Shown here in pieces: positions 43,418-45,963 of a DNA stretch of 64,000 nucleotides. Both the position numbers and the translations under genes were made by a program. Position 1 is the stretch's first letter. Each line of letters starts with the position of its first letter. The notes beneath the pieces are model-generated. The model had not been told where the DNA came from. It ran no database searches and saw only the letters and a program-made list of their open reading frames with translations. The DNA comes from a virus, in IMG/VR virus record IMGVR_UViG_3300012971_000001, positions 1 to 64,000 of that record; one strand, given 5' to 3'.

Positions 43418-43546
43418 ATGGCTGACGAAGAAGAAAAAGAATTCGACATAGACTTGTCCGACGATCCCAACAGCAAGTGGATGCACCAGATGCGCGAGAA
43501 AAAGAAGGAGTACGAGCCAGAGCCGGATCCACTGGAGGACGAATGA
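43418..43546 (+). CDS. 42-aa acidic peptide, candidate ART inhibitor (not in ORF track)
   Basis: MADEEEKEFDIDLSDDPNSKWMHQMREKKKEYEPEPDPLEDE; GGAG RBS; ATGA overlap with next gene. Confidence 0.6.
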   Translation: MADEEEKEFDIDLSDDPNSKWMHQMREKKKEYEPEPDPLEDE

Positions 43547-45963
43547 GCTACGTCGACGAGATAGAAAATAATCTCTCTGACTTAGAAGAGTTCCTTGCCC
43601 GAATCGAGGCCGGCGGACCCGGCAGCGGTTGCCATGGACCGAACTGCGGGCGCCCGCCCGGTTCGGGCAAGGGAGGCACGGCACTGCACGATGCTCCAGA
43701 AGGCGCGCCAGGCGTCGGCACGACCGGCACGCTAATGAAGGACTTCGGCTGGAAGAAAGTGCCCGGTGGGGAAACTACCGTCAAAGGCCATCCGGCAACG
43801 ATGTACACGCATCCAACGCATGGCACGATGTTCGTGACCAAGAATTGGTACGAGCATTACAAGGCGGGCGAGAAAATCGGAGAAAAGACGGAGCTGGCCA
43901 AAGGCAAGCCACTCGCAGAGAAGCTGAAGACGTATCTGAAGGAGAACACGCCCCGGCCTGGTTCTGGTCCGGTAGCGCCCGCGCCGACGAAGCCTGCAGG
44001 CCCCAAACCGACCGGAACTACTACTCCACAGCCGAAGCCTATCCCTGCCACAGCCGCTCAGATCCCCAACCGGGACGCAGAGTTCAAGTTCAAGGAAGAC
44101 GCGGGCCATCTGGGCGGCGCCCATGACAAATATCTCTACACCGACAAGCTCGGAAAAGAATATCTGTTCAAGCCAGCAACAACGCTGAGCGGGGATGTCT
44201 CGCCGTTGATGGCACACGCCGATGAAATGGCATCGCGGATAGCGCAGAAGCTGAGGCCCTACGCATTCGAACACGCCAGAGCAGCAGAGCTTACCGTGCC
44301 CGGCCAGGGCAAGGTGGTCGGCAGCGTGCACGAGATGCTGCCGAACATCATGCAGAACAAAGACTTCAGCGGTGTAAAGCCGAAGGACTTAAAGCCAGAA
44401 GACTCGGCACAGCTGCAACGTGAGCAGGTAATCGACTGGCTGATCAGCAACCACGACTCGCATGGCGGCCAGTTCATCCGCAGCGAAGGCGGAAAAGTAA
44501 TCGGCATCGACAAGACGCAGGCATTCAAGTACTTTGGCAAAGATAAGCTGGATGTTGATTACCATCCGAATGCAAGCTACGGCGAGAAGCCGCCTTACTA
44601 CAATGACATGTGGAAGGCGGTGAAAAAGGGTGATCTGACAGTCGACCCGATGCAGTCGTACAAGACGATTCAGAAGGCACAGGCAATCCCTGATGATGAG
44701 TATCGCAACATACTCATGCCTTATGCCAAAGAAAGATTCAAGAACGACGACAAAGCCGCGAACGAATTCCTTGACAAAGCCGTTGGCAGGAAAAACGCTC
44801 TAAAGGCAGACTTCGAGAAATTCATCGGTGGTGTGTACGGCAAGCCGTTCACGTTCAATAATGGCTTTTCCGGCACTGGGAATCCTATTCCAAAACCCGC
44901 GGGCGCCGGACCGAAGCCACCGTTGCAGCCGGGAGATAAAGGCAGGCCAGCGCCGGTAGAGGAGCAGAAGCAGCGCCTGGCGGAGATGATACAAAAGCCT
45001 TCGGAAAAAGGCCAGGGCACGGCCGGCCACGTCATTGCCTGGGAACCGTATGTACCGCCAGATAATCCGCAGTTCAAATCGCGGATGGCTGAGGCACATC
45101 AAGTGGTGGCAGATGTGATGAGCAAGTACAGCGGCCCGAGCCAAAAATATCTGCATAATTTTGACGATGACAAGCGCTGGGAATGGGAAGCTAAAATCAA
45201 CAGCGGAAAATCTCCCGTAGATGCAGCAAAGGGCCTGGGCGTCTATCCAGAGGCATTTGCTAAGATGGGATTTTCGCCGGGAGAGATGCATGACATGATC
45301 GGCACCATCAAGGGCTGGACGGGCAGCTCGTCGGGAACGAATGGTACTAAGGTGCAGGAAGCAGCGCAGCAGATTATTAACGGCAAGTGCTGTAGCTCAA
45401 AGGTGGCTCGTGCCTTCGAGTTGGAGTACGCCTTAACGCAGGCAAAATTAGCCAAGCAAGTAGATTCGGCAGGTAAGCTCAAGATTCCGGTGTGGCGGGG
45501 CGTGAATGATACTGACGAGCCAGGTTACGCCAACCAATTAGAGGCAGCTGCAGCCAAGCATGACTTCGTAGAAACGGTCAACCGCGGTGCTGAGAGTTAC
45601 TCGACCAGCTTGGATAAAGCTAAGCAATTCGGTCGAGTCATCCTACAGATACACAACGTGCCCGCCAAGCAAGTGCTTACTTCAGCACTTACTAATCCCG
45701 CAGCATTTACAGCTCACCATCACGAAGCGGAAATGGTGGTTGCTCACAAGGGCAATCAGAAGCTGCTTGCGAAAGATGTGATCATCAAGCATTCGGGACC
45801 GTACACGGCGCTGCTAAAGTCGGAGGCAGAGAAAGAAAAAGGATCGTTGGTGCTAGATCTGACGGATGATGTGAACGCAGATTGGTATGCAATAGCTGCC
45901 AGACGTATGCATCTGCCACCAAATGAGGATTATAAGATCTTCGTTATGGAAGCTGTAGAGTAA
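43543..45963 (+). CDS. Putative virion effector 4: GGPGSG tag, HipA/PI3K-like kinase and ADP-ribosyltransferase
   Basis: GGAGG RBS for ATG 43543; YLFKP, DWLISNHDSHGGQF, IGID; VWRG / ESYSTS / HEAEMV. Confidence 0.75.
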   Translation: MSYVDEIENNLSDLEEFLARIEAGGPGSGCHGPNCGRPPGSGKGGTALHDAPEGAPGVGTTGTLMKDFGWKKVPGGETTVKGHPATMYTHPTHGTMFVTKNWYEHYKAGEKIGEKTELAKGKPLAEKLKTYLKENTPRPGSGPVAPAPTKPAGPKPTGTTTPQPKPIPATAAQIPNRDAEFKFKEDAGHLGGAHDKYLYTDKLGKEYLFKPATTLSGDVSPLMAHADEMASRIAQKLRPYAFEHARAAELTVPGQGKVVGSVHEMLPNIMQNKDFSGVKPKDLKPEDSAQLQREQVIDWLISNHDSHGGQFIRSEGGKVIGIDKTQAFKYFGKDKLDVDYHPNASYGEKPPYYNDMWKAVKKGDLTVDPMQSYKTIQKAQAIPDDEYRNILMPYAKERFKNDDKAANEFLDKAVGRKNALKADFEKFIGGVYGKPFTFNNGFSGTGNPIPKPAGAGPKPPLQPGDKGRPAPVEEQKQRLAEMIQKPSEKGQGTAGHVIAWEPYVPPDNPQFKSRMAEAHQVVADVMSKYSGPSQKYLHNFDDDKRWEWEAKINSGKSPVDAAKGLGVYPEAFAKMGFSPGEMHDMIGTIKGWTGSSSGTNGTKVQEAAQQIINGKCCSSKVARAFELEYALTQAKLAKQVDSAGKLKIPVWRGVNDTDEPGYANQLEAAAAKHDFVETVNRGAESYSTSLDKAKQFGRVILQIHNVPAKQVLTSALTNPAAFTAHHHEAEMVVAHKGNQKLLAKDVIIKHSGPYTALLKSEAEKEKGSLVLDLTDDVNADWYAIAARRMHLPPNEDYKIFVMEAVE

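Follow-up and report, generated by a model that had tools for sequence, protein, structure and literature searches.

Fused and detached forms of the C-terminal tail in a family of phage ADP-ribosyltransferases

In a 64,000-nucleotide stretch of virus DNA (IMG/VR record IMGVR_UViG_3300012971_000001, positions 1 to 64,000; hereafter the window), two paralogous ADP-ribosyltransferases (ARTs) and a small acidic open reading frame (ORF) of 42 residues lie next to each other on the + strand. ART1 (368 residues, 42310..43416) is followed directly by the small ORF (43418..43546), and this in turn by an 806-residue protein (43543..45963), which contains the second enzyme, ART2, and behind it a C-terminal tail. 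The peptide encoded by the small ORF and this fused tail are almost certainly homologous and, judged from their sequences, the small ORF is an ART tail that was detached by gene fission. The case is a clean split, made by nature, of an enzyme tail that is conserved in a rare protein family from soil phages that have not been cultured. ARTs associated with the phage head are regarded as a common weapon of phages, and how a phage spares its own producing host late in infection is a puzzle. The locus constitutes a natural experiment, with two paralogous ARTs in one genome and the tail fused in one case and encoded as a separate 42-residue gene in the other. As the best overall explanation, which we put forward tentatively and with somewhat less than even confidence, we propose that the small ORF is a detached ART tail module acting as a regulatory latch.

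The peptide reads MADEEEKEFDIDLSDDPNSKW... and contains the motif FDIDLSDDPNSKW(MH) at 43442-43480; the 806-residue protein carries ...EAEKEKGSLVLDLTDDVNADW, with the motif LVLDLTDDVNADW at 45847-45885. An earlier annotation made from the DNA letters and translations alone (hereafter the sequence-only reading) had pointed out both strings, and both are present, although the long protein does not end with its motif, as had been stated, but continues for 25 more residues. In a single BLASTP comparison, the peptide and the tail of the 806-residue protein align collinearly with E=5e-5, each directly downstream of an ART domain, and in six-frame tblastn searches of the whole 117,450-bp genome they are reciprocal best non-self matches (E=0.018 and 0.025). 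The pattern D[LIVM][ST]DD.[ND]..W occurs at two sites when the genome is read in all six frames, whereas 200 triplet shuffles contain it 0.005 times on average; this test is post hoc because the motif was derived from those two sites. Further, we built a hidden Markov model (HMM) of the tail from 11 fused tails of the tryptophan-bearing type (W-type, see below), leaving out the 42-residue peptide, and searched 2704 sequences, comprising 34 proteins, the peptide entry (P0035) and all stop-to-stop ORFs of the genome with at least 25 residues. The peptide scored 20.3 bits (E=5e-5), with the next non-family match at E=2.3, and none of 20,000 shuffles of the peptide reached this score (maximum 15.3). 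By BLASTP, the peptide matches in addition the tail of a relative, P0025 (E=4.4e-4). A weak similarity of the peptide to the ART1 leader in tblastn (E=1.7) was not confirmed by the tail HMM, and a partial look-alike of the tail motif in a 125-residue ORF (38960-39337), which ends with ...HQDLSDD at its stop codon, was backed neither by this HMM nor by the broader one described below.

The tail is a feature of the ART family as a whole. An exhaustive HMMER scan with ART2 and its tail against 1.84 billion representative proteins yielded 34 matches, one of which (P0034) we dropped, as it is an unrelated repeat protein that matched in the tail region only. Among the remaining 33 ART representatives, 24 carry a fused tail, one is ambiguous (P0006) and eight, including ART1, are tail-less; these classes were read from the sequence past the E-x-E strand, and some of the tail-less C-termini may be incomplete. 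The tail-less proteins other than ART1 are P0005, P0008, P0011, P0012, P0013, P0014 and P0017. Thirteen of the tails are of a 'hydrophobic-V-D-G-T' type and 11 of a 'hydrophobic-D-L-(T/S)-D...W(L-H)' type, as in ART2; the latter is our W-type. The tails consist of a linker, whose length and sequence between the ART core and the motif vary among homologs, and a conserved element, formed by three to four hydrophobic residues, D-x-(T/S)-(D/E), a few further residues and a tryptophan. This tryptophan is often part of W-L-H, after which basic residues follow.

In each tail-bearing protein, the tail HMM has exactly one confident match, which is always located directly after the ART. What comes next differs: in P0019, P0029 and P0031 a module with the AGGPGSG motif begins, in P0018, P0024 and P0027 there is some other domain, and P0001, P0007, P0025, P0030 and P0032 end behind the tail. 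Since the element is found once per protein and behind the ART whatever follows, it belongs to the ART and not to module junctions in general. The idea that it recurs at every module junction was pursued with a broader 'strand' HMM covering both tail types, which found no extra copies above noise; it also missed look-alike strings at the end of a 92-residue ORF and at the start of ART1, and the idea of a junction marker was dropped.

As the motif is a family feature that in most relatives is fused after the ART, we regard the small ORF as the detached tail. The order in the window, with ART1, the peptide and then the leader of the 806-residue protein with its AGGPGSG motif, is the order seen within single polypeptides such as P0019 (2847 residues), and other separate genes at the locus are likewise parts of single long polypeptides in relatives. 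The locus is therefore best read as a polyvalent effector protein split into translationally coupled genes, of which the 42-residue ORF is the smallest piece. In the sequence-only reading, the same peptide was seen as a free antitoxin for one ART and a built-in auto-inhibitory tail of the other. Its putative inhibitory role aside, the homology and the fusion, which is found in 24 of 33 representatives, bear out that the peptide exists in both forms. The label of antitoxin is ill-suited, because it implies an unrelated partner gene and the peptide stems from the ancestral polypeptide of the enzyme itself. The further statement that no small ORF follows the 806-residue protein agrees with our finding that the + strand has no ORF of at least 30 residues between 45963 and the next gene at 46053.

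The arrangement of these modules also bears on a different explanation, in which the element would be a processing or packaging signal, either showing a protease where the ART module ends or directing the module to the capsid, and the small ORF a leftover polyprotein spacer. In P0019, P0029 and P0031 the element is located 8-24 residues before the AGGPGSG module start, with the same order in the window, N-W-L-H is best kept in multi-module proteins, and several genes of the locus are modules of single polypeptides elsewhere. A HEMGH zincin with its gene at 40647-42059 could be this protease, as could a head protease that has escaped recognition, and in excerpts of the literature on polyvalent phage proteins those bearing metallopeptidases have been proposed to be autoprocessed (PMC5512222). 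We nevertheless consider this explanation unlikely, as the element was detected solely behind ARTs, in a single copy per protein, and the remaining AGGPGSG junctions in those polyproteins did not show it. Further, nothing follows it in five of the 11 W-type cases, and from a mere spacer one would not expect a model with a docked strand and helix (see below).

The 42-residue ORF is laid out as a gene of its own. A Shine-Dalgarno-like site, GGAG, is located at 43408..43411, 6 nucleotides before the ATG at 43418, which follows the ART1 stop codon (TAG, 43414-43416) after a gap of one nucleotide. This ATG is the earliest start in its frame, with none back to a stop before 43370. At its other end, the TGA of the small ORF overlaps the ATG of the 806-residue gene at 43543 (ATGA), 4 nucleotides upstream of which lies the Shine-Dalgarno site GGAGG (43534..43538). 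The longest ORF of the 806-residue protein would begin at a GTG at 43477, but the start at ATG 43543 is most likely the true one, and the 806-residue form is also present in a public protein collection. In the same collection, the small ORF too is recorded, as a called protein of 42 residues on three contigs. We predict from this layout that the small ORF is translationally coupled with both neighbors, and we think it probable that the peptide is translated.

The small ORF is in frame +1 relative to ART1 and the 806-residue gene, which share one frame. Programmed +1 frameshifting at GAT-TAG-C was rejected, as the sequence contains no slippery site, and so was read-through of the ART1 stop, which is followed by a second in-frame stop two codons later. 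Since the record was assembled from a metagenome and the ORF has a shifted frame between two genes of the same frame, we also considered an assembly or sequencing artefact, in which a false indel splits a single gene for ART1 and its tail. This is extremely improbable: two frame changes would be required, one at each end, the ART1 frame has its second stop two codons past the first, and contigs from soil runs of other studies match each junction. One of these (X6) spans 43361-43511 and the other (X4) 43446-43896, both with 0 differences and 0 gaps, at low depth (2.2-2.4). Over positions 42900-44100, identical contigs are found in soil metagenome runs of several studies (X4, X5 and X6, in addition to the probable source runs), and the phage seems to be widespread in soil with little variation.

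ART1 is composed of an acidic leader with AGGPGSGCHGDNCGRP and an R-S-ExE ART domain (approximately residues 131-368), with R262, S-A-S and E341-R-E343 as catalytic residues. It ends right past the last core strand, without a fused tail, and in the alignment its end coincides with those of the tail-less homologs. In ART2 (residues 522-754, 45106..45804), the corresponding residues are R652, S687-T688-S689 and E728-A-E730. The two domains are clear paralogs (37% identity over 204 residues, E=1e-34), and the catalytic R, E and E are invariant across alignments of 19 and of 33 rows. The only Pfam family matched by these ARTs is DRAT (PF07357, cut-off 25 bits), with ART2 above the cut-off (32.9 bits, E=4.9e-8) and ART1 below it (18.2 bits, E=1.5e-3). 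The match spans about 110 residues of the 256-position profile, and DraT, a dinitrogenase reductase ADP-ribosyltransferase, has its context in nitrogen fixation, whereas the ARTs in the window belong to a phage head module. From the profile and the catalytic residues, ART1 and ART2 are predicted to be mono-ADP-ribosyltransferases of the R-S-E clade (DRAT-like), members of what by its sequences is a rare family of phage R-S-ExE mono-ARTs that usually carry a tail past a complete catalytic core. Sequence searches of the PDB with the ART gave nothing, ART1 as single query found no relatives among viral contigs, and a word-index search for longer proteins with ART2 and its tail returned only the query itself.

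We modeled ART2 together with its tail using AlphaFold2 and an alignment of 34 rows, with a mean predicted local distance difference test score (pLDDT) of 85.7 and a predicted template modeling score of 0.84; a model from the single sequence (pLDDT 34) was not used. The model has a helical N-terminal part and eight strands, with R131, S166-T167-S168 and E207/E209 corresponding to positions 652, 687-689 and 728/730 of the full protein. The last core strand (226-228) is followed by a disordered linker (233-240, pLDDT below 50). The tail covers residues 755-806 of the protein (45805..45963) and comprises the linker, the motif, a short helix and an end of low model quality. It folds into a strand (248-251) and two helices (255-258 and 260-267) with pLDDT 66-80, and the pLDDT drops below 50 at its end (271-285). 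Within the tail, D772 and T774 are invariant in eight homologs of the 806-residue protein.

In a structural comparison of this model with the whole PDB (48,161 chains), the top 13 rows were all ARTs (Z 4.9-6.6), and the fold matches include Vis, HopU1, C3, Certhrax, Tre1 (6drh_B, Z 5.7), C2-I, ART2.2, VIP2 and SpvB; Foldseek matches the model to the same families with E-values of 0.025 or worse. Most alignments to solved ARTs stop at model residue 234-235. Because they end before the tail, the ART core appears complete without it, in agreement with the eight tail-less proteins. The tail has a higher pLDDT than would be expected for a free-floating peptide. In the model it lies outside the core fold and appears to fold back on a flexible linker as an extra strand and a helix led by the tryptophan, which suggests an accessory element docked in cis. 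We lean towards the view that the tail does dock on the ART.

Docking need not mean inhibition, however. The tail might be an accessory strand that stabilizes the ART or helps it to fold, as an intramolecular chaperone or edge strand, and the free peptide would then complement ART1 in trans, like part of a split protein. This would account for the extra β-strand of the model, which needs to pair with the domain, and for the wide conservation of the tail; also, the alignment with the Vis toxin extends to model residue 254, within the tail. Yet eight homologs with intact R and ExE stop before the tail, and a long, variable and disordered linker is more typical of a tethered regulatory element. 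We thus regard a purely structural role as rather unlikely.

Under the explanation we prefer, the tail would be a regulatory latch that holds the ART quiet in the producing cell. In ART2, the latch would act in cis and be released by a cut in the linker or by displacement of the tail. ART1 would be held by this latch in trans, in the form of a small acidic partner whose synthesis is matched to that of the enzyme through translational coupling. A latch is the best fit to the layout, in which a flexible linker of variable make-up joins a complete enzyme to a conserved element for docking that has an acidic cluster and an invariant tryptophan. Silencing in the producing cell is plausible, since a phage that packs ARTs has reason to silence them there. 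That the putative docking is inhibitory we consider possible, though short of probable. A more specific version, which appears doubtful to us, is that of one inhibitory module in two formats: the acidic, tryptophan-anchored tail would plug the nicotinamide adenine dinucleotide (NAD+) cleft of virion-delivered ARTs, in ART2 in cis until it is cleaved in the capsid or displaced after injection, and for ART1 as a stand-alone antitoxin, freed by fission, translationally coupled and left behind at packaging. If this were true, an antitoxin born from the toxin's own autoinhibitory segment would have been caught in the act. A true latch would provide one ART family with a peptide inhibitor that is short and portable, and would show a toxin/antitoxin pair arising by the splitting of one gene; if it is false, what is left is a tidy gene fission in a fragmented polyvalent effector locus, of limited general interest.

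Several observations weigh against the latch. The eight tail-less ARTs retain R and ExE, and the tail is therefore dispensable in at least part of the family. The pLDDT of the tail is moderate only and was obtained from 34 sequences. A predicted complex between residues 131-368 of ART1 (33-row alignment) and the peptide (12-row alignment) speaks neither for nor against binding, with a median score of 0.48 and one of 0.45 for a control in which the first chain was replaced. There is, however, no obvious charge match between the two, as both are net negative (−3.3 for the ART domain of ART1 and about −11 for the peptide). The contigs compared across runs are all identical to the window, so that no substitution pattern can be read from them, and the runs listed for the phage are soil DNA, with no RNA run among them. 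Finally, in a search for proteins of 23-74 residues with shared five-residue words, the 42-residue query found only itself and no second free-standing peptide; a comparison with the protein atlas gave no usable match.

This lack of a second free peptide, together with the existence of tail-less ARTs, would also be expected if the small ORF were a silent relic, that is, if a stop codon and a shift of frame had cut ART1 off from its tail and the ORF were untranslated or without function. This alternative concerns only the step in trans and leaves the latch in ART2 untouched. We think it quite unlikely, since the family motif has been kept at 20.3 bits despite ART paralogs being down to 37% identity, and since the ORF begins with a start codon behind a well-spaced GGAG and ends with a stop that overlaps the next start.

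Among known systems, Tre1-Tri1 and TreX-TriX come closest to the trans arrangement, in that a small gene lies downstream of an R-S-ExE ART. [quoted passage not shown] In the window, the sequence displays such a toxin/inhibitor layout, with a small gene directly downstream of ART1, separated by one nucleotide, with its own Shine-Dalgarno site and ATG and a stop-start overlap. Tri1 and TriX, however, are folded proteins unrelated to their toxins, whereas the putative partner of ART1 has 42 residues and is homologous to a cis segment of the paralog.

For the arrangement in cis, the autoinhibited toxins pierisin-1 (5h6n, whose PDB title reads 'autoinhibitory form') and MTX (2vsa) likewise have an ART core and then a linker or tail in one polypeptide. 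The MTX linker inhibits its ART. Both structures align weakly with the ART2 model over ranges that include the tail, at Z-scores in the noise range (3.4 and 3.2, respectively). They have no sequence relation to the family studied here and are DNA-targeting or large eukaryote-directed toxins with ricin-like domains. Pierisin-1 is cleaved into N- and C-terminal portions, the former being the active ART (PMC11209040). A defined linker cleavage site of this kind was not found in the tails. The sequence-only reading had proposed that a head protease cuts at LKS/E, but LKSE is unconserved and lies in a linker that varies among homologs in both sequence and length; nor did Pfam, PHROGs or NCBIfam recognise a protease family in the neighboring 478-residue protein.

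C-terminal extensions of ARTs may also serve to recruit a cofactor or a target. The leucine/aspartate-rich box at the C-terminus of ExoS binds 14-3-3, and ExoS/14-3-3 complexes are among the fold matches of our model. TreX depends on TrxA, which it binds through a C-terminal extension at a distance from its active site (PMC11606950, in excerpts). For the tail, we regard such a role as very unlikely, because the detached peptide would itself have to bind ART1 in order to recruit a cofactor there, and because the moderate pLDDT that the tail reaches with no partner in the model points to docking in cis.

Polyvalent effectors, and ARTs whose genes neighbor head genes, are already known from the literature, of which we draw on excerpts (PMC9503650, PMC5512222). 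As in the head-associated phage ARTs and polyvalent effectors described there and in T4 Alt (Iyer et al. 2017, PMC5512222; PMC9503650), the ART genes of the window lie between the portal gene and the remaining head module. The relatives are likewise multi-domain proteins with metallopeptidase, Nudix and kinase-like modules: the 806-residue protein joins a kinase-like domain and an ART, and relatives of 958-2847 residues combine Nudix, kinase-like, ART and other modules. In contrast to these effectors, the polyprotein is here split into at least seven coupled genes. Of possible relevance to head packaging are the portal gene located upstream and look-alikes of 'minor head protein' and MuF-associated proteins. 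Those excerpts on head ARTs and polyvalent effectors (PMC5512222, PMC9503650) contain no description of a tail behind the ART or of a split form.

The remainder of the 806-residue protein consists of a leader with AGGPGSGCHGPNCGRP and a middle domain (approximately residues 180-450) resembling PI3/4-kinases and HipA. The sequence-only reading had called this domain a kinase, and the look-alikes we found, PI3/PI4-kinases and HipA-like kinases, along with a weak match to TIGR03843, point the same way, but they are leads only. As a further lead from the look-alike search, the domain resembles parts of MuF-containing phage head morphogenesis proteins. In tblastn it is found in mycobacteriophage proteins annotated as 'minor capsid and ADP-ribosyltransferase fusion' (32-37% identity), and in other phages it is fused to unrelated ART types (loci L007 and L009). 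Homologs of the 806-residue protein with the same architecture exist. Locus searches with their alignment gave four loci in viral contigs, five in metagenome contigs and 11 in genome contigs, and of these loci only L006 and the incomplete L010 contain the present ART family. Five homologs (P0004, P0005, P0015, P0026, P0033) have an extra N-terminal module between two AGGPGSG motifs, which is Nudix-like by weak PDB matches in the N-terminal parts and is missing from the 806-residue protein of the window.

The window makes up the first 64 kb of a virus record of 117,450 bp bearing direct terminal repeats, and its effector genes, including those discussed above, form a run of + strand genes downstream of the portal gene. 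The motif AGGPGSG(C/R)H is found in five proteins of the window, all on the + strand (39902, 40734, 42583, 43612 and 49987), at a distance of 20-100 residues from their N-termini, and four of the five read AGGPGSGCHGxxCGRP; two of the five bear ART domains. The same motif recurs within the single polypeptides of the 958-2847-residue relatives, at apparent module starts, and may serve in processing, in targeting or in the binding of metal. The titles listed by a full-text literature search for GGPGSG include none related to phages, and no description of AGGPGSG as a module-start motif was found there.

Upstream of ART1, the + strand pieces of the cluster (39701..42313) are a 224-residue AGGPGSG protein, a 92-residue ORF, a 470-residue AGGPGSG protein and an 83-residue ORF. 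The small ORFs of 92, 83 and 42 residues thus interleave with the large AGGPGSG proteins, and their stops and starts overlap or adjoin. The C-terminal part of the 224-residue protein matches C-terminal modules of P0031, P0019 and P0024, and the 92-residue ORF (40372-40650, + strand) matches residues 1-92 of the 1059-residue polyprotein P0027 (E=1.9e-16); for the 83-residue ORF (42062-42313, + strand) no match was found. The 470-residue protein (40647-42059, + strand) carries its HEMGH zincin motif near the C-terminus, and among the PHROG families matched by this part is 'minor head protein' (E=1.1e-10). By its sequence, the protein is a candidate processing peptidase of the cluster.

Downstream of the 806-residue gene, two genes (46053-47489, encoding the 478-residue protein, and 47490-48506) matched no Pfam, PHROG or NCBIfam family; they occupy the places expected for the protease/scaffold and the major capsid protein, and the 478-residue protein has a long, acidic, low-complexity center. 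Megablast of 40000-48600 against a phage collection gave no match. The portal protein gene upstream of the cluster (33411..36872, + strand) is recognised by Pfam Phage_portal (PF04860, E=6.6e-19). With 1153 residues the protein is unusually long, the portal match being limited to residues 744-892, and residues 629-670 have a weak match to LAGLIDADG_3 that is below the cut-off (E=0.0027). Its length may reflect an intein or homing-endonuclease insertion, or an N-terminal fusion. Outside the window, at approximately 102,250-102,870 on the + strand, the genome contains a long, glutamate-rich, low-complexity coding stretch with weak tblastn matches of the acidic peptide.

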